A stretch of 41,375 nucleotides of DNA from Phycisphaerales bacterium (GCA_011048645.1 DSDR01000172.1:1-41375), one strand, 5' to 3'; numbered from the stretch's first letter, positions 9,272-38,437 are shown. Translations and numbers: made by a program. The notes: generated from the sequence alone by a model not told the origin.

Positions 9272-9285
9272 AGATGCAACCTCTA

Positions 9286-9419
9286 AAATCCGAAATCCGA
9301 ATAGCAAAACACAATCGAATATCAGAATATTTTATGCTCACACCAACACCCCTGACTATCTCTGTCATTGGGGATTTTTATATTGTGAGTTTGTTTCGTA
9401 TTTCGGGCTTCGGGCTTCG
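9286..9419 (-). repeat. Structured intercistronic spacer: tandem heptamers (AAATCCG x2) inverted relative to tandem heptamers (CTTCGGG x2), with nested inverted repeats between them
   Basis: Read directly. aaatccgaaatccgaata lies at 9286-9303 and tatttcgggcttcgggcttcg at 9399-9419. Inner arms are CTCACA 9337-9342 / TGTGAG 9384-9389 and CCCCTGAC 9349-9356 / GTCA-tt-GGGG 9364-9373. Confidence 0.6.
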
Positions 9420-9423
9420 AAAT

Positions 9424-9726
9424 TTACTTTTGAAACTGCGGCAGCTTGTCCAGATATTTTTCCGGGTTGCTGGTAAATTCCGCCTCGCAGCCGGGACAAC
9501 AGAAATAAACCTTCTTGCCCTCATACTCAACAAAGAGAGTCTTGTTAATGGGGGCATCCATCACGGGACAGATCGTCTGTTCAACGGCGTTTTCTGCTGT
9601 TTGAGCCGCCTGATGAGCCATGTGGTCATGTCCGGCATGGTCGTCGTTTTTTTTGCTGCAGCCGACAAACACACCGACGGCAACCATCAGAGTCAATACA
9701 CCAAAAATTTTCATTGCTGTCTTCAT
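9424..9726 (-). CDS. Small lipoprotein with a His/Met-rich linker and a YHS/TRASH-type metal-binding domain; candidate periplasmic metallochaperone
   Basis: The signal plus lipobox is MKTAMKIFGVLTLMVAVGVFVGC. This is followed by HAGHDHMAH, then CPVMDAPINKTLFVEYEGKKVYFCCPGCEAEFTSNPEKYL. The domain is a paralog of the C-terminal tail of the adjacent CusB-like protein. Confidence 0.8.
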   Translation of the reverse strand: MKTAMKIFGVLTLMVAVGVFVGCSKKNDDHAGHDHMAHQAAQTAENAVEQTICPVMDAPINKTLFVEYEGKKVYFCCPGCEAEFTSNPEKYLDKLPQFQK

Positions 9727-9747
9727 TGTCGTATCCTTTCCATAACG

Positions 9748-11478: not shown

Positions 11479-11504
11479 CGCCTCAGTTTTATTTCATATC
11501 TTTC

Positions 11505-11519
11505 CTACTACAATAGTAG
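11505..11519. promoter_or_regulatory. Inverted TAGTAG hexamers (CTACTA-caa-TAGTAG) in the 68-nt cusC-cusB spacer
   Basis: Read directly. It shares TTCCTACT and the upstream block TTTTATTTCATA with the palindrome at 12866-12881. Confidence 0.4.
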
Positions 11520-11546
11520 TGTATATGTTTGAAAAAAACTTGCTGT

Positions 11547-14116: not shown

Positions 14117-14710
14117 TTAGACCGCCAGTTTTCGACCGACGGCCCGGGCGCAGCGTTTTCCGCTGTCATTGAGGGAGGAATCCGGAGTGAGGGCGGCCGT
14201 GCCGATGTAGAGTTTTTTGATCCGTCCGACGCCGAAACATTGTGCGCAGGCCTTCAATACGCCGAAGACGTGACGAAAGGCAACCCGTCCAATGAACGCG
14301 GGACAGGCGCTGGACGTAATCAAAAGCGCCTTTTTACGTCCTTTTTTCAGCCGCATCCTGGGATACGTTCCCCACGGCCAATAGCCATAACAGACCAGCC
14401 GTTCGATAAACCGCTTCATCAGGGCGGTGACACTGTAGAAATTGACCGGCGAGGCAAAGATGTAGGCATCCGCCGCATCGAGTGTATCCAAAATGGCGTC
14501 CATATCGTCCCTCATCACACACCGGCCGCGCTCCGGCCCGGCCGCTTGCGTGCATGCGCGACAGTTGGTGCAAAATTCGATATGCTTGTCAATCAGTAAA
14601 ATTTTCTCGGTTTCAGCGCCGACCTCACGGGCGCCCGCCAGCGCCTCATCGACGGCGGTATCCATTGTCTTTCCTTTTCGATAAGTGCCGACGACGGCAA
14701 CGACTTTCAT
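14117..14710 (-). CDS. Flavodoxin-like fold NAD(P)H-dependent FMN reductase / iron-sulfur flavoprotein family
   Basis: MKVVAVVGTYRKGKTMD.., CTNCRAC.., and DAADAYIFASPVNFYSVTALMKRFIERL are typical of the flavodoxin_2 / FMN_red families. Confidence 0.7.
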   Translation of the reverse strand: MKVVAVVGTYRKGKTMDTAVDEALAGAREVGAETEKILLIDKHIEFCTNCRACTQAAGPERGRCVMRDDMDAILDTLDAADAYIFASPVNFYSVTALMKRFIERLVCYGYWPWGTYPRMRLKKGRKKALLITSSACPAFIGRVAFRHVFGVLKACAQCFGVGRIKKLYIGTAALTPDSSLNDSGKRCARAVGRKLAV

Positions 14711-19000: not shown

Positions 19001-20788
19001 GGCCGTCGTTTCCGAGATAAATTCGAGCGGGGAAGTTTGCTTAAAGGCCTTCAAAAGGGCGCTGGTCTCTTCGGCCACCAGCAAAGGAGGCTGCTGCCCG
19101 TCGCTTAACGGGGCCGACAACAGGGTCGGGCCGTATAAAAAGGCCGTGCGATTCGGCATATCCGGCAGAGTTGATGTATGCAGCTTCATCGGGCATGTTA
19201 ATTCAATTGTGTCGCCGTCCTCAAAAGTGCGTCTTAGCGTCAGCCAGCCGTCCTGATCAACGGCGGCGTTTGTCGCCCGACCGTTCAGCGTTACTTCGAT
19301 GCCGTCAGCCCAATACGGCTTTCGTATTTTCAACACAAGACCTTGCGGCTGTATGCACTCAAAAGACAGCGCGACCTGTTCGTGGCTGGGCAATTGGCTT
19401 TGTTGGGTGAGCGTGATCCCTTTGTCTTTCCAGTTCAGAACCGACGAGATAAACAGATTGACATACAGCGTGTCGCCGGCATGGGCGTAAATGGTATCGG
19501 CGTATTTGGCGTGATTTTCCATACCGGTGCCGACACAGCACCAGAATGAGCGGGTCGGATGGCTGAATCCTTTTCGGGAGGGCATATCCAAAAAGCCTTT
19601 ATACACCAGCCGACCGCCCTGTTCGGGATGTTGATGCGCCAGAATGTGGTTGAGCAGCGCCCGCTCATAATAATCCATATAAGCCGCTTTGGGCTGCCAG
19701 GCAAACAAATGCCGCGTCAGCTTGAGCATATTGTAGGTGTTGCATGTTTCGGTTGTGTGGTGCATCCGCTCGGCCAGATGATCGGGTCTGCCGAAATACT
19801 CTTCGGCGCTGTTGCCGCCGTTGGCATAGGTGTAATGGTTGATTACCGTTGCCCAGAAGAAATCGGAAATCGTCTGATAGCGTTCCTTGCCGGTCAGTTC
19901 GTACAGCCGCGCCGTGCCGATGACCTTGGGAACCTGGGTGTTGGCGTGCAGACCGGTCAGACTGTTTTGTCGTTCGCTGAGCGGATCGAGCACTGATTTG
20001 TGATAGAACTTCTCTGCCAGCGCCAGATAACGTTCCCTGCCGGTCAAGGCGTACAGATCAGCGAACGTTTCGTTGATGCCGCCGTGTTCGCAGGCCAGCA
20101 TCTGCTGCCACTGCGATTCATTGAGACCCGCCAGCAATTCATCAATCCAGTCGGCGTGGCGAATCCACACCGCAAGCGCCTTTTGATTGCCGGTATAAAA
20201 ATAAATATCGCGCAATCCGGCCATCAGCTTGTGCTGGGTGTACCACGGCACCCAGATACCGTTCAAATCAAAACCGCGGGAGCGAATTTCTCCGCGCGAC
20301 ACTTCTTCAAAGGCTCGTTTGCCGTTGGGGAAAGCGGACATATAACCGCTGCCGTGTGCGTCCTGGATAAGGGCCAGCTCATCGACGATATACTCGAGTT
20401 TTTGCTTGAACTCATCGCGCCCGGTATGGCCGTACATCATCGCACAAGCCGACATATAATGCCCCAGACTGTGGCCGGCAATTGTTTCACGTTCCCAGCC
20501 GCCATAGACTTCGCCTTTCGGCTCCAATCCGGCCTCCTTTCGAAACCACGCCAGAAAACGATCCGGTTCCAGCGACAACAGCCACTCGGCGTTGAGGTCC
20601 ATGGCCGTTTTGAAGGGGCCTTCCAGCAGCCGAACATCGCCCAATCGGAACGGTCGGGCCTGTATCGCCGCCTGAGGCTCAACCCTGGCAGGAAAGTCCA
20701 TCGTCAGTGAGTCCGCTAAAAGAGGCGAAAACTGAAAACAAAACAAGACAAACATAACACCAATACAGAGCTTTGAGGCACGCATCAT
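16052..20788 (-). CDS. Secreted 1578-aa protein with two tandem GH127/DUF1680-like (beta-L-arabinofuranosidase-type) modules and a C-terminal discoidin-like beta-sandwich
   Basis: The signal peptide is MMRASKLCIGVMFVLFCFQFSPLLADS. Module 1 has GHSLGHYMSA.., HHTTETCNTYNM and SFWCCVGTGMENH. Module 2 has DDTDPYKVLEGAAY.., SHELYNMGHLYEAAV, SAYAETCAAIGN and AWFGCACCPGNIARF. The ETC and CC motifs match the Zn/Cys catalytic site of HypBA1 as I recall it. The C-terminus is WVQFEF..VEVYWLDD... Confidence 0.8.
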   Translation of the reverse strand: MMRASKLCIGVMFVLFCFQFSPLLADSLTMDFPARVEPQAAIQARPFRLGDVRLLEGPFKTAMDLNAEWLLSLEPDRFLAWFRKEAGLEPKGEVYGGWERETIAGHSLGHYMSACAMMYGHTGRDEFKQKLEYIVDELALIQDAHGSGYMSAFPNGKRAFEEVSRGEIRSRGFDLNGIWVPWYTQHKLMAGLRDIYFYTGNQKALAVWIRHADWIDELLAGLNESQWQQMLACEHGGINETFADLYALTGRERYLALAEKFYHKSVLDPLSERQNSLTGLHANTQVPKVIGTARLYELTGKERYQTISDFFWATVINHYTYANGGNSAEEYFGRPDHLAERMHHTTETCNTYNMLKLTRHLFAWQPKAAYMDYYERALLNHILAHQHPEQGGRLVYKGFLDMPSRKGFSHPTRSFWCCVGTGMENHAKYADTIYAHAGDTLYVNLFISSVLNWKDKGITLTQQSQLPSHEQVALSFECIQPQGLVLKIRKPYWADGIEVTLNGRATNAAVDQDGWLTLRRTFEDGDTIELTCPMKLHTSTLPDMPNRTAFLYGPTLLSAPLSDGQQPPLLVAEETSALLKAFKQTSPLEFISETTAYQRGPDGWKTTPLKLMPHYAIADEPYTVYMDVFTPQAWADKQAEFAAEQERIRQLEAMSVDMLRLGQMQPERDHNLTGERTNVGTFSGRMWRDAYNGWFEFDMKVLPDEPVDLIATYWGSERGRRTFDILVDGEKIATQVLDRNKPNEFFDVTHPIPEELTKGKEKVRIRFQAHPNSYAGGVFDVRIIKRNPSGGGKQTLRLERDYPYSPVDFTNVHFDDEFWAPRVEINRTVTIPHAFEKCEETKRFYHFERAAKVLRGEELEDRSPPGLSFDDTDPYKVLEGAAYGLAVEYDPKMDAYLDQVIDLVASAQEPDGYLYTTRTINPENPHEWAGPRRWIYVKRLSHELYNMGHLYEAAVAHYQATGKRTLLDVAIKNAELLCETFGPGKNEDAPGHQIIEMALVRLYRVTGEEKYLNLAKFFLDTRGPNDGQYSQAHKKVVDQDEAVGHAVRATYMYSGMADVAALTGDQAYIQAMDRIWNNMVTKKLYVTGGIGATSSGEAFGPNYVLPNMSAYAETCAAIGNVYWNHRMFLLHGDGKYIDVMERTLYNGLISGVSLDGTLFFYPNPLESRGQHRRQAWFGCACCPGNIARFLASVPGYVYATRNNALYVNLYVGGQGTVQLADNSVKIEQQTRYPWEGQVKLTVAPQTSETFTLALRIPGWAMNQPVPGDLYRYRDTLDKKPTIRVNGRAVSFEPDKGYARMTRQWNAGDTIELNFPMDVRQVVAHENVVENRHRIALERGPIVYCIEAADSPTEQVRNLIVDPKTPIHTEFRSNLLGGVQVLTFRASEVGLDDSDNRIVTSSVDVTAIPYSTWCNRGPNEMVVWLPTRKEDAFVRPRPTLASESRVTASRGTGRPRSVVSGVEPKSSHDKDNEFYHWWPRKGTTEWVQFEFAEPTALSAVEVYWLDDTGHGECKVPQSWRLLYKDGDEWKPVDDSNGYATELNMFNRTAFTQVTTTAVRLEIRMQRGWSAGVLQVRFDE

Positions 20789-20937
20789 CGACCAGTCTCC
20801 TTTCTCGTTTCAAGGAATCCATTATTCTCTATTCGATAAACTTAAAGACGATTTCCGAATCACCTGCCATCCTCTTAAAGAGGTTCAAGAAAATCAAAAG
20901 AAATGGACAGTTTTTTTGAAAAAATTGAAAAAAATTG

Positions 20938-20966
20938 TTGCAAAGTTAGGCGAACCTAATTATCTT
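20938..20966 (+). promoter_or_regulatory. Distal copy of the dtxR promoter (TTGCAA-17-TATCTT) with a DtxR-box-like palindrome AGTTAGGCGAACCTAATT (20944-20961) filling the spacer
   Basis: Read directly. TTAGG-cgaa-CCTAA is symmetric and resembles the DtxR/IdeR consensus TTAGGTTAGCCTAACCTAA. Confidence 0.5.
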
Positions 20967-20982
20967 AGACCAGACTTAAACT

Positions 20983-21225
20983 ATGAGTTTATACAATAAA
21001 CAACTGAGTGCCTCCCTTGAGGACTATCTGGAGGCGATATTTGTTCTTTCGCAGACAGGCAGGATTGCCCGCAGCAAATTCCGAATCACCTGCCATCCTC
21101 TTAAAGAGGTTCAAGAAAATCAAAAGAAATGGACAGTTTTTTTGAAAAAATTGAAAAAAATTGTTGCAAAGTTAGGCGAAACTAATTATCTTAGACCAGA
21201 CTTAAACTATGAGTTTATACAATAA
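20983..21225 (+). pseudogene. Duplication by-product: the first 31 codons of the DtxR-family gene, reading out of frame through the duplicated promoter (80-aa ORF)
   Basis: MSLYNKQLSASLEDYLEAIFVLSQTGRIARSK is identical to the start of the intact gene except for I/V. The ORF then diverges into FRITCHPLKEV.. and stops at 21223-21225, 17 nt inside the intact gene. Confidence 0.8.
21164..21192 (+). promoter_or_regulatory. Proximal copy of the dtxR promoter (TTGCAA-17-TATCTT). Its operator copy AGTTAGGCGAAACTAATT (21170-21187) carries a C-to-A change in the right arm.
   Basis: Read directly. The change breaks the CCTAA arm symmetry that is present in the distal copy. Confidence 0.5.
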
Positions 21226-21694
21226 ACAACTGAGTGCCTCACTTGAGGACTATCTGGAGGCGATATTTGTTCTTTCGCAGACAGGCAGGGTTGCCCGCAG
21301 CAAAGACATTGCCGAGCATTTGCAGGTAGCGCCGTCATCAGTCACAGGCGCGCTGAAAATGCTGGCCGAGCGGCAATTGATTCACTATAAACCCTATGGA
21401 TATGTTACCTTGACCGACAGAGGCCGGCAAATGGCCGGGCGTATCGTTCGACGGCATGAGGCGCTGGAATCATTTTTTTGCGATATCCTTGGGGTGGATC
21501 CCGATGTTGCGCAGCGCTCGGCCTGTTTGGCCGAACACGCCATCAGTTCGGAAATTGCATCGCGTCTGATGCTGTATTTGGAGTTTCTGTCATCGGAAAA
21601 ACAGTCCGGCAGAGATGTACCGCGGGCGTTTCAGGGGTATTGCCGGCAAACGGAGATCCGGAGTCAGGGCACACAAAAACCCAGTCATACGTGA
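21209..21694 (+). CDS. DtxR/MntR-family metal-dependent transcriptional repressor (HTH plus dimerisation domain, no SH3 domain)
   Basis: 161 aa. Motifs: EDYLEAIF, the HTH ARSKDIAEHLQVAPSSVTGALKML, YGYVTLTDRGR, RRHEALESFF and CLAEHAIS (metal-ligand positions). Fe versus Mn specificity cannot be read from sequence. Confidence 0.9.
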   Translation: MSLYNKQLSASLEDYLEAIFVLSQTGRVARSKDIAEHLQVAPSSVTGALKMLAERQLIHYKPYGYVTLTDRGRQMAGRIVRRHEALESFFCDILGVDPDVAQRSACLAEHAISSEIASRLMLYLEFLSSEKQSGRDVPRAFQGYCRQTEIRSQGTQKPSHT

Positions 21695-21766
21695 TGGTCG
21701 ATGTTCAGTGATGATGTTTATTGCGTCAAGGATTCAATAATGCAGACCAACAAGGAGACACAATCG

Positions 21767-21991
21767 ATGCCGCTTATACAAGTACCGGCCGGAAAGACCG
21801 TCGAGGTCGTTTTCATCGACGCCGGGCACGGGTTGAAAAATCGCCTTGCTTCCATGGGCGTCCTGTCTCATTCAACGTTTAAGGTATTGCGCAACGAAGG
21901 GGCCGGTCGGCTCATCGTCGGTATCAAAAACAGCAAAGTTGTCATCGGACGCGGCGCATCCGGTAAAATTTTTGTCCGGGAGTGTGAATAA
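21767..21991 (+). CDS. feoA: FeoA-domain protein
   Basis: MPLIQVPAGKTVEVVFIDAGHGLKNRLASMGVLSHSTFKVLRNEGAGRLIVGIKNSKVVIGRGASGKIFV is a typical FeoA SH3-like domain. I set the start at ATG 21767, which has AAGGAG 9 nt upstream. The track ORF starts at 21701. Confidence 0.85.
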   Translation: MPLIQVPAGKTVEVVFIDAGHGLKNRLASMGVLSHSTFKVLRNEGAGRLIVGIKNSKVVIGRGASGKIFVRECE

Positions 21992-22006
21992 TTTTTTTAG
22001 ATAATA

Positions 22007-22024
22007 AGTTAGGCAAGCCTAACT
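22007..22024. promoter_or_regulatory. DtxR-box-like perfect palindrome AGTTAGGC-AA-GCCTAACT between feoA and feoB
   Basis: Read directly: 8-bp perfect arms with a 2-nt centre. It shares AAGTTAGGC with both dtxR promoter copies, and TTAGGcaAGCCTAA matches the core of the DtxR consensus. Confidence 0.6.
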
Positions 22025-22043
22025 CGCACAGGGATTGTTTTCA

Positions 22044-24128
22044 ATGGAACAAAAAAAAGAAATACGTGTTGCTCTGGCCGGCAACCCCAACAGCGGAAAA
22101 ACCACTGTATTTAATCTGTTGACCGGTGCGCGGCGACACGTCGGCAATTATCCCGGCGTAACGGTCGAAAAAGTCGAAGGACGACGCGATTATAAAGGAT
22201 TTTTACTGCGTTTTGTCGATTTGCCCGGCACTTACAGTCTGGCCGCCTATTCCACCGAAGAGCTGGTTGCCCGGCATTTTATATTGGATGAAAAACCTGA
22301 TGTGGTCGTTGATGTGCTGGATGCTTCCAATCCGGAGCGGCATTTATACCTGGCCACGCAATTGATGGAAATGCGCACACCGCTGGTGCTGGCCTTTAAT
22401 ATGTCCGATGTCGCTCAAAGCCAGGGACTGGAATTTGATTTGAAACACCTGGAGGGCCTGCTTGGCTCTCGTATTGTGCCGATGGTGGCCAGCAAGGGTA
22501 AAGGAATGAATGACCTGCTGGACGCGGTCATCGAAACCGCGGCCGATAAGACGCCCATTACGCCGCCAATGCACTATGGCAAGGATATTGAGGCCGAACT
22601 GTCTCGGATTGAACACCTCTTGATAGAATCCGATTGCGAGGTCTCGGCCCGGTACGGAAGCCGATGGGTTGCTTTGAAACTGCTCGAAGGCGATGCGGAA
22701 CTATGCAGTCGCGTTAAACATTCGGATATTTTGAAAGTAGTTGAGGCCGCTCAGGTTCGGCTTAAAACCATTCTCGGCGATAGTGCGGACATCTTGATTG
22801 CCGACCGGCGCTACGGGTTTATCAGCGGCGCCTGCCAGGAAGCGATCAAGCACACCGTCCTGGCCCGCCACGATATCAGCGACAAGGTGGATTTGGTGCT
22901 GACGCATCGCTGGCTGGGACTGCCGATATTCGGAGTGCTGATGTATCTGGTGTTTTATCTGACATTTACGCTGGGCGAATATCCGATGGGGTGGCTGGAA
23001 ACGTTTTTCGATTGGCTGGGTGCGGCAACCGTCGCCGTTTGGCCGGGCGAAAACCTGCTCTGGCTGCAATCGCTTCTGGTTGACGGCGTGATCGCCGGCG
23101 TCGGCGGAGTCGTGGTCTTTCTGCCGAATATTCTCTTTCTGTTTTTGGGTATCGCTGTTCTTGAGGATACTGGCTATATGGCTCGCGCGGCCTTTATTAT
23201 GGATCGCATTATGCACAAGATCGGTCTGCACGGAAAAAGCTTCATCCCAATGCTGATTGGCTTTGGCTGTTCGATTCCGGCGATTATGGCCACACGCATT
23301 CTGGAAAACCGCCGCAACCGGCTGGCTACTATGCTGGTCATTCCGCTGATGAGCTGCGGAGCGCGCATCCCTATTTATGCGCTGCTGATTCCGGCGTTCT
23401 TCCCCCCCCACTGGCGCGGGCCGGTGATGTGGCTGATTTACATTATCGGAATCGTCGCGGCTATCCTCTGCATCAATCTGCTGCGGCGATCTCTACTCAA
23501 AGGCGAATCCGTTCCGTTTGTGATGGAATTGCCGCCCTACCGAATGCCGACATGGAAAGGCCTGTCTATCCATATGTGGGATCGCGGCTGGATGTATTTG
23601 AGAAAAGCCGGAACGATTATTCTCAGTTTATCCATCGTCTTGTGGTTTTTGATGAGTTTTCCCACGCCGCCGGAAGGACGGTTTGATCATCTGACGCCGG
23701 AAGAACAATACGCTGCCGGCCTGAAATATTCAATTGCCGGTCGCATCGGCAAAGCGATGGAGCCGGTGATTCGACCGATGGGTTTTGACTGGAAGATCGG
23801 TACCGCCCTGATCGGTGCGACCATGGCCAAAGAAGTGTTTGTGACGCAATTGAGTATCGTCTATTCGCTCGGCGACGAAGAGGAAGACGAAGAGACGCTT
23901 TCCCTGCTTCGTCAGCGGCTGCGTGCGGACTATTCGTCGCTTCAGGGGTTTTGCATTATGTTATTCTGTTTGCTCAGCACACCGTGTATTGCAACGGTGG
24001 CGATTACGCGCAAGGAATCCGGAAAATGGAGATGGGCCTTATTCCAGTTTTTCGGTCTGACGGCGATGGCCTATGTTGTGACCACAGCGGTCTTTCAAAT
24101 CGGCAGTTTGGTACAGTCGTTAATCTGA
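22044..24128 (+). CDS. feoB: Ferrous iron transporter FeoB (G-domain plus permease)
   Basis: G1 is GNPNSGKTT and G3 is DLPGTYSL, with gate motifs in the polytopic C-terminal part. I set the start at ATG 22044 (MEQKKEIRVALAG). Confidence 0.95.
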   Translation: MEQKKEIRVALAGNPNSGKTTVFNLLTGARRHVGNYPGVTVEKVEGRRDYKGFLLRFVDLPGTYSLAAYSTEELVARHFILDEKPDVVVDVLDASNPERHLYLATQLMEMRTPLVLAFNMSDVAQSQGLEFDLKHLEGLLGSRIVPMVASKGKGMNDLLDAVIETAADKTPITPPMHYGKDIEAELSRIEHLLIESDCEVSARYGSRWVALKLLEGDAELCSRVKHSDILKVVEAAQVRLKTILGDSADILIADRRYGFISGACQEAIKHTVLARHDISDKVDLVLTHRWLGLPIFGVLMYLVFYLTFTLGEYPMGWLETFFDWLGAATVAVWPGENLLWLQSLLVDGVIAGVGGVVVFLPNILFLFLGIAVLEDTGYMARAAFIMDRIMHKIGLHGKSFIPMLIGFGCSIPAIMATRILENRRNRLATMLVIPLMSCGARIPIYALLIPAFFPPHWRGPVMWLIYIIGIVAAILCINLLRRSLLKGESVPFVMELPPYRMPTWKGLSIHMWDRGWMYLRKAGTIILSLSIVLWFLMSFPTPPEGRFDHLTPEEQYAAGLKYSIAGRIGKAMEPVIRPMGFDWKIGTALIGATMAKEVFVTQLSIVYSLGDEEEDEETLSLLRQRLRADYSSLQGFCIMLFCLLSTPCIATVAITRKESGKWRWALFQFFGLTAMAYVVTTAVFQIGSLVQSLI

Positions 24129-24144
24129 TTTTCTGTTTTGAACG

Positions 24145-24327
24145 ATGAAGCCTATTAACCCGGCCCAAAAAAATAAGCTCAAAACGGCTTTGCCGAGTGT
24201 GTCCTCGCCGCCGATTTACCGCATCGAACAGCTTTTTGACGGCGCACGACAAGTCCGTTTGCTCCATAAAGGGCAGGAATATCGGCTGAGTATCACCAAA
24301 GCGGATAAATTGATCTTAACCAAATGA
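24145..24327 (+). CDS. HemP/HmuP-like small protein (60 aa)
   Basis: The C-terminal signature IEQLFDGARQVRLLHKGQEYRLSITKADKLILTK matches the HemP family pattern (..LF.G..E..I.H.G..Y.LR.T..GKLILTK). It starts 17 nt after the feoB stop. Confidence 0.75.
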   Translation: MKPINPAQKNKLKTALPSVSSPPIYRIEQLFDGARQVRLLHKGQEYRLSITKADKLILTK

Positions 24328-24416
24328 CAGGATAAAACGAATACATTAAAAATGCCAGCCAATTGCTCTGCAATAGCCAGCCATATCAAAAGTAAACTTT
24401 TTGGAAAGGAAAGTGT

Positions 24417-25733
24417 ATGGTTGGCAGAAAAAGTTTGTCTTATTGGCCATCTGTATTGGATTTATTTCTGGTTGCGAGGCTAGTCGTCTCGGACCAATCG
24501 TATGGGAATGAAATAGACACAGCAGTCATTCAGCATCGACTGGAACAATTGCAGGGCGAGATAAATCAGCTCAAGGCGATGCTGTCGCAGCAACAGGTCG
24601 AACAGGAACGTACTCGACAGGAGATTGAAACCTATCGTCAGAAGGTTCAGGCACAAGAAACGCTGCGTGCCGCCGAACAGGATCGGCTGCATATTGGCGG
24701 TTACGGTGAAATCAAAGGGAAATTCCGGCAAGGCAGCGATGCGGATTTTGGGGACATTCATCGTCTTGTCCTGGAAATCGGGTATGATTTTTCAGACTGG
24801 GTCAGATTTTTTTCCGAGTGGGAAGTCGAACACGCCCTTGTTTCCGATACGGCTGACGGTTCAACCGGCGGCTATTTGATGATCGAACAGGCATATTTCG
24901 ATTTTCTGTTGTCCGATATGTTTAACGTTCGGGCAGGTCGTATTCTGACGCCGATGGGGATCATTAACAAACGGCATGAGCCGGACACGTTCTTCGGTGT
25001 GGATCGTCCTTCTGTCGAGCGCTATATCATCCCCACGACATGGCCGTCGGACGGCGTTGGTTTGTTCGGCAATTTGGGTTCGCATCTGGCCTATGAGATG
25101 TATGTAGTCGGCGGCCTGGACGGTTCAAAATTCAATGCCGTCAACGGCATTCGCTCCGGCCGACAGCGGGAACGCCCCGGCCTCAATGATCCCGCCGTCA
25201 CGGGGCGACTGGACTATTTTCCGCAAATGAGTCCGGGACAGGATTTGCGGCTGGGGGTATCCGGCTATTACGGCGGATTGAACAACGGCAATCGGGGTCG
25301 AAATCCGGGCATCAGCGGCAAGATTCGAATACTGTCGGCGGATTTTGAGTATTCGATTGATAAATGGGACTTCCGCGGCGTTATCGTACACACCGATATC
25401 AGCAACGCCCGTCAGATTGGCAACGGCGCCGCCAGTGAAATGTTCGGATGGTATCTGGAAGGCGGATATCACTTTTGGCCGGACTCCTTCAAGGTCGGTA
25501 AGCTTGCCGATTCCGATGCGGTGGCTTTTGTGCGTTACGATCATTTTGACACACAGCACAAAATGCCTTCCGGAATTGCGGCGGATCCGGCCGGAGACCG
25601 AAATACATGGACGTTTGGAATGAATTTTGACTTGACCTCCAATGTTGTTTTCAAGACCGATTACCAGATACAGAAAGACCGCGCCGGGAATAAAGAGAAT
25701 TGGCTCAACTTTGGTCTGGGATTTTCATTTTAG
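24417..25733 (+). CDS. Outer-membrane porin with an N-terminal coiled coil (phosphate-selective porin O/P-like). The 5' end is possibly frameshifted.
   Basis: The coiled coil is LEQLQGEINQLKAMLSQQQVEQE... It is followed by alternating beta-strand sequence ending GLGFSF, with the terminal Phe typical of OM barrels. The annotated frame has no signal peptide, but a lipoprotein-type signal lies in another frame (see findings). Confidence 0.7.
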   Translation: MVGRKSLSYWPSVLDLFLVARLVVSDQSYGNEIDTAVIQHRLEQLQGEINQLKAMLSQQQVEQERTRQEIETYRQKVQAQETLRAAEQDRLHIGGYGEIKGKFRQGSDADFGDIHRLVLEIGYDFSDWVRFFSEWEVEHALVSDTADGSTGGYLMIEQAYFDFLLSDMFNVRAGRILTPMGIINKRHEPDTFFGVDRPSVERYIIPTTWPSDGVGLFGNLGSHLAYEMYVVGGLDGSKFNAVNGIRSGRQRERPGLNDPAVTGRLDYFPQMSPGQDLRLGVSGYYGGLNNGNRGRNPGISGKIRILSADFEYSIDKWDFRGVIVHTDISNARQIGNGAASEMFGWYLEGGYHFWPDSFKVGKLADSDAVAFVRYDHFDTQHKMPSGIAADPAGDRNTWTFGMNFDLTSNVVFKTDYQIQKDRAGNKENWLNFGLGFSF

Positions 25734-25741
25734 GAGATAAG

Positions 25742-26218
25742 ATGATGCCGCATCAAACGATGGTATTCAGTACGGCGGTACCGTTGAGTTTAATGTGTAA
25801 CAGTTGCAGCGGGCCGGAACAAACAGCCGCCAGTATCATTGCGGAAAATGAGCAATTTATGATGTATAAAGCAATGGGAAATGCACAGGATCGGTTTGCT
25901 GTCAGAACAACAGCCGCGACGCGCTCCGGTACATTTACACTGGAGGTTGTTATCAATCCGGATATGGTGATTCAGGAAACCAGAATTCTATCCTATCCTT
26001 TAACACGAGGCCGCGGCATTTTACAGCCGGGTTTTTTGAGCCGGTTCCACGGCAAAACCATCAATGATCCCATTCAGGTGGGAAACGATATACATGCAGT
26101 AACCGGAGATACAATGTCATCAATAGCAATGTCTGATGCCGTACGCCAAAGTCTCGCATTTGCCGTCCAATACAGAGAGCGGATGCAGAGACTGAACGAC
26201 AACTCACCGCCGCTATAA
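25742..26218 (+). CDS. Exported FMN-binding-domain (FMN_bind, RnfG/NqrC/PplA-like) protein
   Basis: GTFTLEVVINPDMVIQETRILSYPLTRGRGILQPGFLSRFHGKTINDPIQVGNDIHAVTGDTMSSIAMSDAV fits the FMN_bind pattern, including the flavinylation-site region. It has a hydrophobic, Cys-containing N-terminus. I set the start at ATG 25742; the AGGAG SD overlaps the porin stop. Confidence 0.75.
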   Translation: MMPHQTMVFSTAVPLSLMCNSCSGPEQTAASIIAENEQFMMYKAMGNAQDRFAVRTTAATRSGTFTLEVVINPDMVIQETRILSYPLTRGRGILQPGFLSRFHGKTINDPIQVGNDIHAVTGDTMSSIAMSDAVRQSLAFAVQYRERMQRLNDNSPPL

Positions 26219-26230
26219 AATTTGACATAA

Positions 26231-26247
26231 TAGTAGAAATTTAGTAG
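26231..26247 (+). promoter_or_regulatory. Direct TAGTAG hexamers 11 bp apart, inside a candidate promoter (TTGACA 26222-26227, 17 nt, TAGGTT) upstream of the OprB-type porin
   Basis: Read directly. TTTAGTAGG is identical to the left arm of the cus palindrome at 12863-12871. Confidence 0.4.
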
Positions 26248-26312
26248 GTTTTACATAAAGAAATATAAAATGCTCCTGAACTGACAGAATCAATTTTTGG
26301 AAAGGACAGCAG

Positions 26313-27572
26313 ATGAAGCGCATCACCTTGGGATATGGTATTGGATTGGTTCTCATTGTTTCGGTCTTTGCCCATCAGAATCCCTCAGAAAAGGAATCTC
26401 TAACCGATGGTTTTTGGGGACTGAATGAAGCGTTGGAATCAAGCGGTATTGAGTTTGGGCTGAGTCTGACGAACATCTATCAGCTCAATGCCCGCGGCGG
26501 AATGAGTACCAGCCGTCGTCAGGGGCGCTGGTCCGGCAGTTACGATTTTGAGATGACCGCTGATCTGGAGCGGCTGTTGGGTGCCGAGGGCGCTGAAATC
26601 TATATGCTGGCCGAGGGGACCTGGTCGCGCAAAGACATTGATGAAACCTCCGTCGGCAGTGCGTTCGGCGTCAACGCGGATTTTGCCCCGCGCGAGGCGT
26701 TTAACATCATTGAGTTCTGGTATCAGCAATCGTTCTTTGACGATACACTGAGAATCCGCATCGGCAAGCTCGATATGACCGGCGGATTTGAGCACAGGGG
26801 CCGTCCTGTTTCGTTTGACTGCAGCGCCTACGCCAACGATGAAAACACGCAATTTCTCAATAATGCGCTGGTCAACAACCCGACCATTCCGTTTCCGGAC
26901 TATGGGCTGGGCGTGATTGTCTTCTGGAATCCGGTGGATGATTGGTATCTGTCGGTTGGAGCCGCCGACGCGCAGGCCGACAAACGCGAAACCGGCTTTA
27001 ACACCGCCTTCCACAGCGAAGATTACTTCGTCTATATGGCCGAGACGGGCATCACGCCTCAATTCAACTCGGCCAACGGCCCCCTGCAGGGCGCTTATCG
27101 GATCGGAATGTGGTACAGCCCCGAACCTCGCGCCAACGAACAGGCGGCTGATGAGGGCAGGGCCTGGCGCGATGATACCGGTTTTTATCTGAGCTTTGAC
27201 CAGCTTTTGGCCAAAGAAAACAATGACCCGGACGACAGTCAGGGATTGGGCGTTTTCTTCCGTTACGGCCAAGCCAGCGCCAAGACCAATGACATCACTG
27301 ATTTTTACAGCGTCGGCTTCCAGTACCAAGGCCTCTTTGACGGCCGCGACGACGATGTGCTCGGCGTCGGTTACGCCCGCGGCCGGTTCAGCCATCGCGC
27401 CTCGGCGGTCTTTCGCGATCACCACGAAAGTGTTCTGGAAGCCTATTACAATACCAGCATCACGCCGTGGCTGAATCTCAGTCCGTCGGTACAATACGTT
27501 GCCAACCCCGGCGGCTCCGGCGAAGCCAAGGACGCCGTCGTTGTCGGTCTTCGGGCCATGATGATCTTTTGA
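26313..27572 (+). CDS. OprB-family (carbohydrate-selective / iron-uptake type) outer-membrane porin
   Basis: It has the signal peptide MKRITLGYGIGLVLIVSVFA. The motif EFWYQQSFFDDTLRIRIGKLDMTGGFE is characteristic of OprB family members. The protein ends VVGLRAMMIF. Confidence 0.8.
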   Translation: MKRITLGYGIGLVLIVSVFAHQNPSEKESLTDGFWGLNEALESSGIEFGLSLTNIYQLNARGGMSTSRRQGRWSGSYDFEMTADLERLLGAEGAEIYMLAEGTWSRKDIDETSVGSAFGVNADFAPREAFNIIEFWYQQSFFDDTLRIRIGKLDMTGGFEHRGRPVSFDCSAYANDENTQFLNNALVNNPTIPFPDYGLGVIVFWNPVDDWYLSVGAADAQADKRETGFNTAFHSEDYFVYMAETGITPQFNSANGPLQGAYRIGMWYSPEPRANEQAADEGRAWRDDTGFYLSFDQLLAKENNDPDDSQGLGVFFRYGQASAKTNDITDFYSVGFQYQGLFDGRDDDVLGVGYARGRFSHRASAVFRDHHESVLEAYYNTSITPWLNLSPSVQYVANPGGSGEAKDAVVVGLRAMMIF

Positions 27573-27649: not shown

Positions 27650-27886
27650 ATGCCGTTTAAGATGATGTTTATTTTGATTGGCGGGTTGCTGTTTTTGGCA
27701 TCGACGGCAGGTTATATTTATGCCAAGGTGCGTTTGCGTCCGCGCGGGGAGTCCGACGTGGACGAGTATTATTATGAATTCGAGGACCAGCATCCCGGAC
27801 TGGCTCGCTATTACGCCTGGTGTCGCGTCACATGGGGCGGCATCATTACGGCCATGCTGCTGATATTTCTGGCTTTGGTGCTGTAA
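27650..27886 (+). CDS. Hypothetical small two-TM membrane protein (78 aa)
   Basis: It has two hydrophobic helices flanking an acidic loop, DVDEYYYEFEDQ. A candidate promoter TTCACA-16-TATACT lies upstream (about 27616-27643). Confidence 0.45.
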   Translation: MPFKMMFILIGGLLFLASTAGYIYAKVRLRPRGESDVDEYYYEFEDQHPGLARYYAWCRVTWGGIITAMLLIFLALVL

Positions 27887-27897: not shown

Positions 27898-29583
27898 TTA
27901 TTTTTCTCCGGCCAGCACCTCGGCAATGTTGAAAGCGTGGTCTTTGATCCGCCGATACGAAGTCAGCATATCGGTATAAATCAGACTTTTGAGCGGCGTG
28001 GCCTTGCCGTCGCCGACACGGGCCAGGTGTTTGCTGCGGCAGTCTTTCATCAATGTGGTAATCTCTGTACCCCGAGTCATCGCTTCTTTTAGAAACTGTC
28101 CGTTTTCGGATTCTACCGCATGGTTCACGTCGCAGATGTAGCCGGATACCATATCATGCAATTGGAGGATTTCCTCCAGCGCTTCAGGGCTGAGTACCTG
28201 ATCGGTGTCCCGCATTTTCAGGCGAAGTTTCAGAATGGTAACGACATAATCGCTGATCGATTCGAATTCATCGGACATACGAAGCTGCTCGCGCGCTGTC
28301 TTCATAGTTTCATGGGAGATATTGCCTGACATGATATGGCCGATAAATTCGACGATTTCTTTTTGGACAATATCCAGATCGTTTTCAGCCTGGAAAATCG
28401 GCTCGATCTTGTCCGGTTCCAGATTTCCGGCAGCGAACACCTCGCGCAGCAGTTCGAGCATCTGATCCACCCGGTGTCCCATCTTGACGACTTCTTTGCC
28501 GGACTGTTCCAGGGCGATACTCGGCGTATCAAAAACGCGCACATCCAGATAGGTCAGGCGCGGCGCGGTCGGTTTCTTTCGATCCGGTACCGCCCAGTTG
28601 AGGAAACGGGCGACATAGCCAATCAACGGCAGAAACAATATCGTATTGACGATATTAAATGCCGAATGGGTGACGGCAATGGCGGCCATAACGTGCGGAT
28701 AGGTTACGCCGGCGTCGGTATAAACCGCCACATCCGGCCGTTCGGTATGGTGAAAGACGTCAAGGAACCAAAGTACCCCGTCGGTGTACCACGAAAAGAT
28801 GGCGGTAATCCACAACACGCCGAAGACGTTAAACATAATATGCGCATAGGCGGCACGACGGGCATTCGGAGAGGTCCCCAGGGAGGCCAGAAACGCCGTG
28901 ATCGTCGTGCCGATGTTCTCGCCCAGCACCAGCGCCGCGGCGGTCTGATACGTAATCGCCCCGCTAAACGCCAGTGTCATCGTTATCGCCAGCGTAGCCG
29001 ATGAGGACTGAATCAGCGCGGTCAGCAGCGCTCCGATCATACAGCATCTCAACACGCCAAAATATGACGTCGGCTCAAATCGATGAAACAGTTCGACAAA
29101 GCCCGGCATATCTTTGAAGGGAGAAAAGCCGGTTTTCATCAATTGCAGCCCGTAAAACACCATCCCCAGGCCCAACACAAACATCGCCGTAAAGCGCACC
29201 CGGTCGCGCTTGATGAACAAATAGATCAAGGCCGCCGACCCTATCAGCGGCAGGCCGTATTTGTCCACACTAAGCGTGACCACCCAGCCGGTAATCGTTG
29301 TACCGATATTGGCTCCGGCAATCACCCCGATTGCCTGCAAAAGGGTCATCACGCCGGCGTTGACCATCCCCACCACCATGACCGTGGTAATTGAGCTGGA
29401 CTGAATAAGACAGGTTACAGCGGTACCCACCCCGCAGGCCATCAGGCGATTGTTCGTGACCGCTCCGATCATACGACGCAGCCGTTCTCCGGCGACCGCC
29501 TGCATCCCTTCGGACATATTTTTCATTCCCAAGAGAAATAGACCAAACCCGCCGAGAATCTCGAAAACCATTTGTGCGTTCAT
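27898..29583 (-). CDS. Na/Pi cotransporter family protein with C-terminal PhoU-like domains
   Basis: GGFGLFLLGMKNMSEGMQ and QSSSITTVMVVGMVNAG, with a repeat at QSSSATLAITM, are NptA-type repeats. The C-terminal half is helical and PhoU-like. I set the start at ATG 29583, which has AGGGGG 5 nt upstream; the track starts at GTG 29607. Confidence 0.85.
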   Translation of the reverse strand: MNAQMVFEILGGFGLFLLGMKNMSEGMQAVAGERLRRMIGAVTNNRLMACGVGTAVTCLIQSSSITTVMVVGMVNAGVMTLLQAIGVIAGANIGTTITGWVVTLSVDKYGLPLIGSAALIYLFIKRDRVRFTAMFVLGLGMVFYGLQLMKTGFSPFKDMPGFVELFHRFEPTSYFGVLRCCMIGALLTALIQSSSATLAITMTLAFSGAITYQTAAALVLGENIGTTITAFLASLGTSPNARRAAYAHIMFNVFGVLWITAIFSWYTDGVLWFLDVFHHTERPDVAVYTDAGVTYPHVMAAIAVTHSAFNIVNTILFLPLIGYVARFLNWAVPDRKKPTAPRLTYLDVRVFDTPSIALEQSGKEVVKMGHRVDQMLELLREVFAAGNLEPDKIEPIFQAENDLDIVQKEIVEFIGHIMSGNISHETMKTAREQLRMSDEFESISDYVVTILKLRLKMRDTDQVLSPEALEEILQLHDMVSGYICDVNHAVESENGQFLKEAMTRGTEITTLMKDCRSKHLARVGDGKATPLKSLIYTDMLTSYRRIKDHAFNIAEVLAGEK

Positions 29584-29866
29584 TAAACCCCCTGCGTATA
29601 TGAGCACAGGATTAGAGTCAGATTAATACAAGACGATTATTGGCGATTATCGCGGCACGTTATACCGTCGCCTCCGGCCAAAGTCAAGCCCCAAGCCCCA
29701 AAAACACAGGCTCATATCAAATTTTAACTCTATACAATAAGCGTTGTTGCGGCATCCCTGAGACATCGCAAAAGATAGACGCTTTGATGGGCGGCTCAGG
29801 TATAAAGATGGCGTGTGTCGCCAAAAATGCGGCTTGCTCGATCAGGCATTCCTCGGCGGCCTGCAC

Positions 29867-35902: not shown

Positions 35903-38431
35903 CTACGGCCACAACCCCAATTTCAACGGCGATTGTGTCGGATCAGCCGGTATCAGCATAACGCCGTCCTGCGGATGTTCGTCGGCCAATTGCGCAACCG
36001 CTTCGGTCGGCAACACCATAAAAGCGGTGGTCAACGCATCGGCTTTGGCCGCTGAAAAATCCGTCAACAGCCAAACCGCCCGTCTTTTTGATGCGGGCCG
36101 GCCGGATACGGGATCAATGATATGGCTTCCGCGCTCCAGCCCCGAACAACTCAGCACGCGACCGGCCAACGCCAGGCGAACCAGCGTTTCTGCTGGATCG
36201 TGCGGATTGGACAACCGAATCGGCCAGCCGTCCCTTTCTTGCGGCGGCCCCAACGCGCGCACCGAGCTTGCCCCGCCGTGTATCAGGGCGTGTTCAATGG
36301 TCCACTGGTTCAACATTTCGGCCATCCGATCAATCGCGTAGCCTTTGGCCACGCCGCCCAAATCAAGCTCCATATTCGGCCGCCCTACGATAACGGTTAA
36401 CTCCTCCGCATTGAGTTCAAACGGCCTGCCCTCTCGCGTCGGCAACAGTCGGGCGATCTGATCAGGAGTCGGTTCGCCCTGCCGCCACAGCTGAACCAAC
36501 GGTCCGACCGACATATCAAATGCGCCGTCTGTCCGTGCGTAAACTTCTTCAGCAATTTTTAAACAAGCCATCGTATCCGGCGAGACCACCACCGATTCGC
36601 CGGGCCGGGCCTGATTGATGCGACTGATATCGCTGTTGTCGATGAAGCGACTCAACTCCTGCTCCAGCCGATCGACCTCGGTGAACGCCGCACGCGCAGC
36701 GCGGCCGGCGTAAGAGCCGTCCTCGTGCTGAACCCAGATTTCAAAGACCGTATTCATAGCCTGATGGCTGAACTTGGCCGTTTTCGGAATCTCGTTACGG
36801 TCGGGCTGAATATGCACAATAGGTCCCTCATCCACTTGATCATGAGAAGATTCAACGGCCGCCGGCGTCTGAGCAAATACTTTTTCCCACAGAGATCGCG
36901 TCACCACCCCCCGCCATTCGACGCCGGGACGCAGCTCGATATACTCATCAAACAACGGCACATAAAGTTCACGCTGACCCGGCGGCGGGGTCTCATACAG
37001 TTTTCGCAGCACGTCCTGCTTGACATCGGCATGACCAATCACCAACGGTGCATTGGGCAAACGCAAATCGACGGTGTCGGTATAGGCTGCCGCTTCAAAA
37101 TCCCGCAGATACCACGGCAGCGGCCAGTAATCATGCCCCGGCGCAATAACCTGAATAAACATTTTCTTGCCGTCCGGATGGACGTCCGCAATGCGGCGGA
37201 CGGTCTGCTCGATCTTGAACACATCCGGGCCGGTGTGCGCATACACCCACGGATTGCTCGGATGAGCGGCGTATCGGGTGTTCAAAAATACCGACTGAAA
37301 CAGCGGACTGACAACCCCGAAACCCGCCAGTACAATGCACAGCATGATTTTCTGCCATCGCATCACATCCCAGCGAAGCATCCGGTCGGTTGCCAACCCC
37401 GCGAGCAAAACCATCCCGTACATAAAATTTAACGCACACCACGGCGTCTTATACGGGATGACCGAATAAATAATCGTTAAAATCAACGTAAACAAAGCCA
37501 AAAACACACCGAACGGGCGGCGATGCGACAGCCCTGCGCGACGTTGAAATGCAAAAAAGAATCCGAACAGGGCGCCGGCTGCGATGATGTCTTCATTCCA
37601 CGTAATCGGCTGGACAAACTCAATCCACACCATCAAATCCAGATACCAATACCACGGATGGGCGTGGATGCTGTGCTGGCCGGCGCGATTGAGCCAGTAG
37701 GTATAGGTCAGCACCGAATCCAGAATGCCGTCGGGATGTTTGCCGAAGGATGAAAAAAAGACCATACTGGTCGCTGCCGCGGCCAACAGGCCCAGTAGTC
37801 CGTTCCGGTTGTACAGCGAAAAACGCACCGGCCAGCCCGTCAAGACCAGCGTCAGCAGCGCCGCCAGCATCACCGCGGCAAACGTCAGCGCGCACGTTTC
37901 TTTCGTCGCGTGCATCAGACCGGCACACACACCCGCAAAGAGTATCCATCGGCGCCGATGAGACCGCATATACCGCCACATTCCGCCCAGAAAGCCTGCG
38001 GTAAAGCAAACCAGCAGCATTTCCTGAATATAGTAGCGGCTGTAATAGACAAAAGCGGGCGAAAAAGCCAGCAGCACGGTGGAAAACACCGCCGCGCGCA
38101 GACCAATACCGTCAAAAAACAAAAGCGGAGTCAATAAAAGCAACGTTCCGAAAATCGCCGGCACAAAGCGAAGCGTTTTTTCGTCAATATCGATATACGA
38201 CGCCTGTCCGCGGAGCCAGGCCACCGGAAGCGCCAGATAATTCAGCGTCGGACCGTGGTACTCGTCGGGGTCATAGGCGTAAAAGCCCTCATCCAGCAAA
38301 GCGCCGAATTTTTCGGCATGAACCGCTTCATCGGTATGCATCGGCCTCATGTCCAGGGCATAAATCCTGAACCAGAGGCCGAATGCAAGCGTCATACCGA
38401 ACAGCAGACATCCTGTCCGTGATAACCTCAT
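35903..38431 (-). CDS. Fusion protein: N-terminal TIGR03663/PMT-like GT-C polytopic membrane domain (~aa 1-520) plus C-terminal ApbE-family FAD:protein FMN transferase domain (~aa 545-842)
   Basis: The N-terminal part has MHTDEAVH (DE) and EYHGPTLNY (HGP), the invariant motifs I recall for TIGR03663, followed by about 12 or more TM helices. The C-terminal part has AMNTVFEIWV, SDISRIN, TDGAFDMSVGPL, LDLGGVAKGYAIDRM and IHGGASSV, which is the ApbE signature. It is one uninterrupted 842-codon ORF. Confidence 0.8.
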   Translation of the reverse strand: MRLSRTGCLLFGMTLAFGLWFRIYALDMRPMHTDEAVHAEKFGALLDEGFYAYDPDEYHGPTLNYLALPVAWLRGQASYIDIDEKTLRFVPAIFGTLLLLTPLLFFDGIGLRAAVFSTVLLAFSPAFVYYSRYYIQEMLLVCFTAGFLGGMWRYMRSHRRRWILFAGVCAGLMHATKETCALTFAAVMLAALLTLVLTGWPVRFSLYNRNGLLGLLAAAATSMVFFSSFGKHPDGILDSVLTYTYWLNRAGQHSIHAHPWYWYLDLMVWIEFVQPITWNEDIIAAGALFGFFFAFQRRAGLSHRRPFGVFLALFTLILTIIYSVIPYKTPWCALNFMYGMVLLAGLATDRMLRWDVMRWQKIMLCIVLAGFGVVSPLFQSVFLNTRYAAHPSNPWVYAHTGPDVFKIEQTVRRIADVHPDGKKMFIQVIAPGHDYWPLPWYLRDFEAAAYTDTVDLRLPNAPLVIGHADVKQDVLRKLYETPPPGQRELYVPLFDEYIELRPGVEWRGVVTRSLWEKVFAQTPAAVESSHDQVDEGPIVHIQPDRNEIPKTAKFSHQAMNTVFEIWVQHEDGSYAGRAARAAFTEVDRLEQELSRFIDNSDISRINQARPGESVVVSPDTMACLKIAEEVYARTDGAFDMSVGPLVQLWRQGEPTPDQIARLLPTREGRPFELNAEELTVIVGRPNMELDLGGVAKGYAIDRMAEMLNQWTIEHALIHGGASSVRALGPPQERDGWPIRLSNPHDPAETLVRLALAGRVLSCSGLERGSHIIDPVSGRPASKRRAVWLLTDFSAAKADALTTAFMVLPTEAVAQLADEHPQDGVMLIPADPTQSPLKLGLWP

Positions 38432-38437
38432 AGGCGG

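Follow-up and report, generated by a model that had tools for sequence, protein, structure and literature searches.

How does iron cross the outer membrane before FeoB imports it? This passage is usually dismissed as diffusion through general porins, and Feo is treated as an inner-membrane system. The question is raised by a locus in a 41,375-nucleotide (nt) stretch of DNA from a Phycisphaerales bacterium (GCA_011048645.1 DSDR01000172.1:1-41375, hereafter the window), in which dtxR, feoA and feoB are followed on the same strand by genes for a HemP-family protein, a porin, a protein with an FMN_bind (flavin mononucleotide-binding) domain and an OprB-family porin. The new data indicate that the porin and the redox protein encoded directly behind it belong to a widespread two-gene module, whose second member is a flavoprotein in some lineages, including that of the window, and a monohaem cytochrome c in others. 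The pair in the window consists of:

24417..25733, + strand: Porin_O_P-like ('psp-like') porin with signal sequence (Pfam Porin_O_P 38.5 bits, cutoff 20.9)
25742..26218, + strand: RnfG-like FMN_bind protein, best start ATG 25742 (Pfam FMN_bind 22.7 bits, cutoff 22)

A porin with a constant redox partner

The pairing is seen from both genes. The FMN_bind protein is divergent, its homologues numbering 2 in a word-indexed search versus 613 in an exhaustive one; the best single-domain matches are about 150-220 amino acids (aa) long, mostly carry a lipobox cysteine, and follow the family consensus ...SRSGPF...YP..RGR...DPIR.G.DIDAVTGAT.SS (alignment A1). The contigs of three of them (P0010, P0011, P0016) are short and give little context. 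All eight independent members with upstream sequence lie directly 3' of a porin homologue, which is recovered at E values of 1e-132 to 1e-154 in full-length or long partial copies (L001, L002, L083, L085, L086-88, L089/90, L091/92). Seen from the other gene, a metagenome scan with the porin alignment returned 80 loci, in 68 of which the sequence extends at least 450 nt past the porin. The gene that follows encodes an FMN_bind protein in 38 of these and a lipoprotein with a single CxxCH in 30, and there is no locus with neither.

The cytochrome partner is a lipoprotein of about 115 aa with exactly one CxxCH and weak Pfam cytochrome matches, that is, a monohaem cytochrome c. Grouped at 80% identity, the porins of these loci form at least 31 clusters; average-linkage clustering of their identities puts the cytochrome type on more than one branch, and identity remains at about 61% between porins whose partners differ. 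Porin and redox lipoprotein together are a widespread two-gene module. The replacement of the flavoprotein by a monohaem cytochrome c lipoprotein in other lineages argues for electron transfer as the partner's purpose. In two further arrangements, a C-terminal cytochrome domain is fused to the FMN_bind protein (L164:6689-7564, L176:1344-2189) or both partner genes are present (L153:8379-9249). Flavin and haem occur together in these three modules, with cytochrome motifs NCSSCHALIEPGRF / NCSSCHSLIEPGRF.

The porin itself belongs to a large family, with more than 640 relatives at E<=1e-20 among 8000 candidates scored. The best 120 relatives, from Planctomycetota, Candidatus Abyssobacteria and Candidatus Poribacteria, are 50-64% identical, mean column identity is 55-59% and about 75-100 columns are invariant, a degree of conservation that lies far above what one would expect of a general porin. 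The Porin_O_P (PF07396) match is partial, covering profile positions 11-196 of 370. An AlphaFold2 model (predicted local distance difference test, pLDDT, 82) has 16 strands and a 54-residue N-terminal helix (35-88) and depicts a stalked barrel, with a periplasmic coiled coil at about residues 35-88 and highly conserved inward loops L3 and L4. Its best Foldseek matches are OmpM1 and OprP/OprO (OprP 2o4v_A, E=6e-14, template modelling (TM) score 0.58-0.62); a profile search of the PDB with the porin sequence returned no barrel relative, OprP and OprO included. Columns conserved to at least 90% make up 18 of 32 positions in L3 (between strands 5 and 6), 13 of 26 in L4 and roughly half of the strand positions, and an unusually long periplasmic turn, T6, is conserved too. 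On strand 3, the alternating residues E134, E136 and E138 are invariant, and further invariant residues include many Asp, Glu and His; the three glutamates would form an acidic, lumen-facing ladder suited to cations.

The gene set at the locus

The original prediction had described seven same-strand genes with very short spacers, and this description is borne out: seven consecutive + strand open reading frames (ORFs) each match the stated family in Pfam/NCBIfam scans. Besides the pair given above, the set comprises:

21209..21694, + strand: DtxR/MntR-family metalloregulator, 161 aa, without SH3 domain (Pfam Fe_dep_repress 3e-15, Fe_dep_repr_C 1e-18)
21740..21991, + strand: FeoA (Pfam FeoA 2e-13); the ORF opens at 21701, start 21740 being likelier
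22035 (TTG) or 22044 (ATG)..24128, + strand: FeoB ferrous-iron transporter (FeoB_N 2e-59, FeoB_Cyto, Gate, FeoB_C)
24145..24327, + strand: HemP-family small protein, 60 aa (Pfam hemP 1.5e-13)
26313..27572, + strand: OprB-family porin (PF04966; Pfam OprB 1e-59, 203 bits, profile positions 4-370 of 372)
27650..27886, + strand: small 78-aa protein, probable eighth gene, conserved 3' of OprB in relatives

In the regulator, PF01325 and PF02742, the winged-helix DNA-binding and the metal-binding dimerisation domain, score above their cutoffs; every MntR/DtxR equivalog model of NCBIfam stays below its cutoff, the MntR models scoring highest. FeoB passes the equivalog cutoff of TIGR00437 (582 bits, cutoff 315.65), with an N-terminal G domain, a Gate/nucleoside-recognition domain and FeoB_C, and feoA adjoins feoB. 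Judged by relatives of its FeoB, the window belongs to the Anaerohalosphaeraceae (Phycisphaerae, Planctomycetota). As read from the sequence, the spacers are 16 nt between feoB and hemP, 89 nt between hemP and the porin gene and 94 nt between the FMN_bind gene and oprB. The predicted overlap of a Shine-Dalgarno sequence with the porin stop is likewise present, the stop TAG being embedded in TAGGAGA, 8 nt 5' of the FMN_bind ATG. A terminator and promoter scan gave counts at background, with no terminator-like site in any intergenic gap, and Rfam gave no match at E<=0.1.

The unit had been taken to end with oprB at 27572. Since the 78-aa ORF keeps its place after OprB in three relatives (L001, L004, L005; phmmer 1e-30 to 3e-37), it probably ends at 27886 instead and holds eight genes. 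The small protein has no family match in a Pfam scan; its hydrophobic N- and C-terminal stretches look, by eye, like two membrane helices.

A mosaic operon among FeoB relatives

How much of this arrangement is shared was assessed at 80 genomic loci with FeoB 57-96% identical, whose six-frame ORFs were searched with the window proteins and a hidden Markov model of the FMN_bind family. While dtxR-feoA-feoB is near-universal among these loci, only 9 of the 60 with enough sequence have the start of an OprB-family gene no more than 1 kb behind feoB (directly after feoB in L004, L005, L010, L036 and L039, as weaker OprB-family ORFs in four more). Three relatives with 75-84% FeoB identity (L004, L005, L010) have dtxR-feoA-feoB-oprB without hemP, porin or FMN_bind. 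Among the 80, hemP and porin are seen only in L003 (96% FeoB identity), where the FMN_bind gene is not visible because the contig ends inside the porin. The seven-gene set is therefore not a conserved neighbourhood, and the operon is read as a lineage-specific mosaic, in which a hemP-porin-FMN_bind cassette lies between feoB and oprB of a unit made of a dtxR-feoAB core and oprB with its small ORF. OprB was considered as a core component and rejected, as no more than 3 of 24 loci have it behind the FMN_bind partner. The proposed tie of the FMN_bind protein to porin and Feo survives in part: the FMN_bind gene is no chance neighbour, the pairing with the porin holds in 68 of 68 loci once the haem version is included, and the full module is not conserved.

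Iron-related context and predicted operators

The surroundings of the pair connect it to iron in many lineages. Among 31 FMN-type loci with at least 700 nt upstream, Fur or DtxR lies nearby in 25, FeoB in 17 and HemP in 16. Specifically, the gene order is Fur - FeoB - x - DtxR_C/FeoA - porin - FMN_bind in L086, DtxR/FeoA - FeoB - FeoB_associated - HemP - porin - FMN_bind - Fur in L089 and simply Fur - porin - FMN_bind in L091. In the cultured Anaerohalosphaera lusitana (L093; CP019791, about 592.9-596.2 kb), Fur is again found ahead of porin - FMN_bind, and fur genes adjoin the pair in L086, L091, L093, L097 and others.

Among cytochrome-type pairs, 10 of 21 run on into an Alginate_exp-like barrel, and four continue to feoA or feoA-feoB. 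The complete run is seen in L177:9096-16048, an apparent operon in the order ArsR-type regulator - 109 aa - porin - cytochrome c lipoprotein - Alginate_exp barrel - feoA - feoA - feoB - FeoB_associated. An apparent operon of the cytochrome type is also seen in L131, L163, L123 and L150. Judging from gene content, the combination of porin, redox lipoprotein, second barrel and Feo therefore exists in two versions that are not orthologous, a flavin type with OprB and a cytochrome type with Alginate_exp.

The regulatory region of the window contains the following features:

20853..21304: tandem duplication 2 x 226 bp, 99% identical (20853-21078, 21079-21304; repeat search)
20946..20959, + strand: DtxR-box-like palindrome TTAGGCGAACCTAA, the copy within the upstream repeat unit
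21172..21185, + strand: DtxR-box-like palindrome TTAGGCGAAACTAA, ending 23 nt 5' of the dtxR ATG
22009..22022, + strand: DtxR-box-like palindrome TTAGGCAAGCCTAA, 12 nt before the feoB TTG and 21 nt before the ATG

The box pattern TTAGGnnnnCCTAA has 3 matches in the window versus 0.41 expected, and 0 of 100 shuffles reach 3. Two of the boxes precede dtxR because the 226-bp duplication copied the dtxR promoter; the repeat unit comprises the promoter/operator and the first 32 dtxR codons, leaving a truncated upstream copy (ORF 20983-21225). The duplication is absent from the closest relative, L003; it may reflect a recent change in regulation or have arisen as an artefact of assembly. Exact boxes stand at the same position before dtxR in L164 and L172, and an exact box lies just 5' of the feoB reading frame in L164. 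As there is no overall enrichment across the porin loci and only the exact copies are well placed, the DtxR-type operators predicted before dtxR and feoB are suggestive only.

The FMN-binding protein and its flavinylation motif

The FMN_bind protein resembles RnfG and NqrC. Its AlphaFold2 model (pLDDT 87) matches RnfG (7zc6_G, 9eri_G) and then NqrC in Foldseek with probability 1.00, and a profile search of the PDB finds RnfG at 6.8e-15. The site at which the family would be flavinylated is nevertheless altered in the window copy:

26102..26113, + strand: flavinylation-motif position T121-G-D123-T124 (family consensus [ST]-G-A-[ST])

The ApbE flavinylation motif is D-x-x-[S/T]-G-A-[S/T] (PMC12052999). 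The window protein, with H-A-V-T-G-D-T, departs from it, carrying Asp for Ala while the target Thr is kept. Asp at position 123 (GAT) versus Ala (GCT) is a one-base difference, at 26109. A123 is conserved to at least 90% in alignment A1, nearly all complete FMN partners have [ST]GA[ST], and a relative 87% identical to the window protein (P0002) has TGAT. A sequencing error was considered as the source of TGDT and rejected, the second independent assembly P0387 having TGDT as well. Since the partners in L099 (ITSAT) and L167 (VSRAT) also deviate at the motif, such variants are not unique to the window. In a model protein, an A-to-V change in the motif lowers flavinylation to about 50% (PMC12052999). 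Because TGDT replaces [ST]GA[ST] in two assemblies, flavinylation of the window copy is uncertain. Its N-terminus, with an uncharged N-region and an atypical LMCNSC/CNSC lipobox, is a probable but degenerate lipoprotein signal, compared with the clear lipoboxes of its relatives (IISC, LSGC, IVGC).

A candidate maturase of the FMN_bind protein is encoded outside the operon, 8.3 kb downstream of it:

35903..38431, - strand: ApbE domain (residues 559-821) fused to a PMT/GT-C-like membrane domain, 842 aa (Pfam ApbE 4.6e-57, PMT, PMT_2)

ApbE as part of the module was considered and rejected, since it lies near the pair only in L136 and L154, beside rnf genes. In the window (35903-41375, - strand), the neighbours of the ApbE fusion are an F5/8-type-C protein whose N-terminus looks like that of a lipoprotein, a hydrophobic protein of 457 aa that is probably polytopic and matches no Pfam family, and, truncated by the end of the window, a protein of the cytochrome b561 family. 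Together these genes may form a membrane redox cluster of their own, linked to flavinylation. Beside the module itself, Pfam scans of the large window ORFs and the annotated loci L086, L089, L091 and L093 revealed no membrane electron-transfer genes.

Neighbouring genes

Directly upstream of dtxR and divergent from it, a very large, 1578-aa ORF (16052-20788, - strand) may, from the look of its sequence, encode a doubled glycoside hydrolase. Convergent to the end of the operon lies a Na/Pi cotransporter with a PhoU domain (27898-29607, - strand); phosphate genes are not recurrent at related loci. A cytoplasmic NADPH-dependent FMN reductase (FMN_red) gene, 6.5 kb upstream (14117-14710, - strand), has no evident link to the module. 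Farther out, about 8-10 kb upstream of the Feo unit, a CusCBA-like heavy-metal efflux set of the resistance-nodulation-division (RND) type (5732-12836, - strand) comprises ACR_tran, a membrane-fusion protein with HMBD and YHS domains, and OEP. In L177/L178, too, a CusB/ACR_tran pair is encoded some 6 kb ahead of the cytochrome-type module (L178:1-3966), which may be coincidence.

Weighing the explanations

The available data are compatible with a model in which the locus would be a metal-regulated iron-acquisition operon composed of three pieces: a dtxR-feoA-feoB core, OprB with the small membrane protein, and an inserted cassette of hemP, psp-like porin and redox lipoprotein between feoB and oprB. 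The porin would be a 16-strand channel of the trimer type, stalked by a periplasmic coiled coil, whose lumen and constriction are conserved and rich in acidic residues; iron would probably enter through it as Fe2+ or in small complexes of Fe(III). Its partner would be a small exported one-cofactor electron carrier, RnfG-like and FMN-binding here and a monohaem cytochrome c elsewhere, and would most likely reduce Fe(III), or keep iron reduced, on the periplasmic side, so that FeoB could import Fe2+. We consider it slightly more probable than its negation that an iron-regulated entry route of this kind, with an outer-membrane channel and a one-cofactor redox carrier ahead of FeoB, exists. What the sequences show is the gene content, the invariable pairing of porin and partner, the exchange of flavin for haem in the partner and the neighbourhood with Fur, DtxR, HemP and Feo; iron as the substrate, the direction of electron flow, a donor encoded elsewhere, contact between the two proteins, co-transcription and ferric reductase activity are inferred. 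The redox step before FeoB that the original prediction proposed is supported by the swap of non-homologous flavoprotein and cytochrome in an otherwise constant genomic slot, which is the strongest argument for it and mirrors the redundancy of flavin and cytochrome in extracytosolic electron transfer (PMC8238504). A bolder version, which we regard as rather unlikely, would see in porin and lipoprotein an unrecognised outer-membrane machine for reductive iron uptake, a minimal, split 'Cyc2 run in reverse', in which one covalently bound flavin or haem, placed at the opening of a cation-selective barrel, would convert incoming Fe(III) to Fe2+ and pass it to FeoB, possibly along the coiled-coil stalk. 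Such a machine would be found widely among anaerobic Planctomycetota and candidate phyla, its flavin and haem versions being interchangeable.

Several points weigh against an iron-regulated entry route with a redox step. Fur or DtxR lies upstream of cytochrome-type pairs in only 3 of 20 cases, and neighbours of the Fur family could belong to other paralogous groups. Counted over all 80 porin loci, the box pattern shows no enrichment (12 found versus 10.7 expected, one mismatch allowed), and the below-cutoff MntR models that match the regulator best bear on its specificity for iron versus manganese. The module encodes no electron donor or membrane electron-transfer protein, and the window FMN_bind protein may be poorly flavinylated or poorly lipidated. 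No porin columns were found that distinguish flavin- from haem-partnered porins, and a partner-specific interface or complex therefore finds no support. The hosts, furthermore, are mostly anaerobes with Fe2+ already available, so that the need for a reductase is not obvious.

Three other explanations have to be considered. Cyc2 is a fused cytochrome-porin, and a monohaem cytochrome or flavin with a 16-strand barrel resembles it; the pair could be an outer-membrane redox conduit of the split Cyc2/porin-cytochrome kind, whose cofactor in or under the barrel would exchange electrons with extracellular iron, either reducing Fe(III) at the surface with Fe2+ entry via the same pore or oxidizing Fe(II). 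The invariable pairing would suit such a conduit, as would the long conserved turn T6 and the conserved inward loops. We nevertheless judge it unlikely, as one cofactor by itself cannot bridge the membrane unless there is a donor within the barrel, a periplasmic multihaem protein is missing from the encoded set, partner-specific porin columns are not found, and the company of Fur, DtxR and Feo speaks for assimilation, not for respiration or oxidation. The mosaic might also have no joint function at all, with dtxR-feoAB-oprB as the iron unit, hemP-porin-FMN_bind as a chance insertion and the FMN_bind gene decaying here. The cassette is indeed absent from L004, L005 and L010, the pair stands alone with Fur and without Feo in L091, L093 and L097, the window copy combines TGDT with a degenerate lipobox, and the 226-bp duplication suggests a locus in flux. 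Against this, the cassette recurs beside feoB/hemP in many unrelated loci (17 of 31), and the FMN_bind gene has an uninterrupted reading frame with translational coupling to the porin; its product, which has kept the target Thr, shares 87% identity with a relative bearing the canonical motif. We regard an assembly without joint function as improbable.

A different substrate, namely Mn(II), haem or phosphate, which the redox lipoprotein would serve or whose import it would guard against oxidative damage, is very unlikely. OprP carries an arginine ladder, which the invariant alternating Glu of the porin do not fit, and FeoB scores above the TIGR00437 equivalog cutoff; Fur/DtxR and FeoA/FeoB recur as neighbours across lineages, and phosphate genes do not. 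Nor would haem or flavin be the cargo, since both kinds of partner carry covalent-attachment motifs. What speaks for another substrate is the top score of MntR models for the regulator, the 'hemin uptake' family to which hemP belongs, the Porin_O_P match together with the convergent Na/Pi cotransporter, and the fact that some FeoB homologues transport Mn (PMC8749426).

Relation to known systems

Outer-membrane partners of Feo are not new, since Rodionov et al. (2004) predicted them (PMC545781): in Geobacter and Desulfuromonas, they reported Fur-regulated porins termed 'psp', weakly PF07396-like, and an OprB-family gene followed by feoAB, and predicted a role in Fe2+ entry. The premise that feo loci are confined to the inner membrane does not agree with this literature. 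Those porins share with the present ones the same two Pfam affinities, control by an iron regulator beside feoAB and the proposed role in Fe2+ entry; the likeness to psp is one of shared properties, not of compared sequences. They are, however, single porin genes without a redox partner, whereas here the PF07396-like porin is always accompanied by a lipoprotein with flavin or haem, and a single operon contains porins of both types.

Reductive iron assimilation by flavoproteins has precedents too. According to Meheust et al. (2021), FMN_bind proteins are linked to the iron transporters VIT1 and P19/FTR1, and flavin and cytochrome are redundant in extracytosolic electron transfer; a term search of that paper gives no 'porin' and 'Feo' only in the reference list (PMC8238504). 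Like the ApbE-flavinylated proteins of Listeria (PplA/FmnB) and of the P19/FTR1 and VIT1 clusters, the present family has a small exported RnfG/NqrC-type domain, the [ST]GA[ST] motif, a co-localised ferrous-iron transporter and interchangeable flavin and cytochrome. In contrast to those systems, the transporter here is FeoB, the constant neighbour is an outer-membrane porin, the module has no membrane electron-transfer component and the window copy carries TGDT. Extracellular electron transfer of the Listeria type (PplA, FmnB, Ndh2, EetA/B, DmkA) differs in its clustered membrane electron-transfer genes, which are lacking here.

Compared by architecture only, the barrels also recall the Cyc2 and MtrAB/porin-cytochrome complex (PCC) conduits, in which a beta-barrel and a haem or functionally equivalent redox protein act on iron at the outer membrane. 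Unlike in Cyc2 and MtrAB, the components here are separate genes, the lipoprotein has one cofactor, which may be flavin, and the context is the assimilatory one of Fur, DtxR and Feo. The N-terminus of the window porin, moreover, is a coiled coil without the CxxCH of Cyc2, the redox protein being a separate downstream flavoprotein. With OmpM1 of Veillonella and OprP/OprO of Pseudomonas the porin shares the 16-strand barrel, and with OmpM1 also an N-terminal periplasmic coiled-coil stalk. Set against these porins, it lacks an SLH domain, has no relative in the PDB that is detectable by sequence, and carries invariant strand residues that are acidic rather than an arginine ladder.

The combination had not been recognised as a described system; porins beside feoAB have been described, and a description of the obligatory redox partner did not turn up. 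Full-text searches, covering few subscription-journal papers, found no published Feo/porin/FMN_bind system and no porin-FMN_bind or porin-monohaem-lipoprotein pair; a study of Feo evolution (PMC8749426) mentions no porin, flavin or FMN, and a later flavinylation paper no porin. The new element is the invariable pairing of porin and redox lipoprotein, while reductive or flavin-linked iron assimilation and iron-regulated porins are known.

Implications

The findings draw attention to a dedicated, very conserved porin with a constant small redox lipoprotein, be it a flavoprotein or a cytochrome. If the proposed entry route is real, many uncultured anaerobes would supply Feo with iron by way of a specific channel and a redox step. 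The route would, furthermore, extend ApbE-type flavinylation to a function linked to the outer membrane and present a clean natural example of flavin/haem equivalence. As the pair is present in a cultured organism, Anaerohalosphaera lusitana, the idea is open to experiment.

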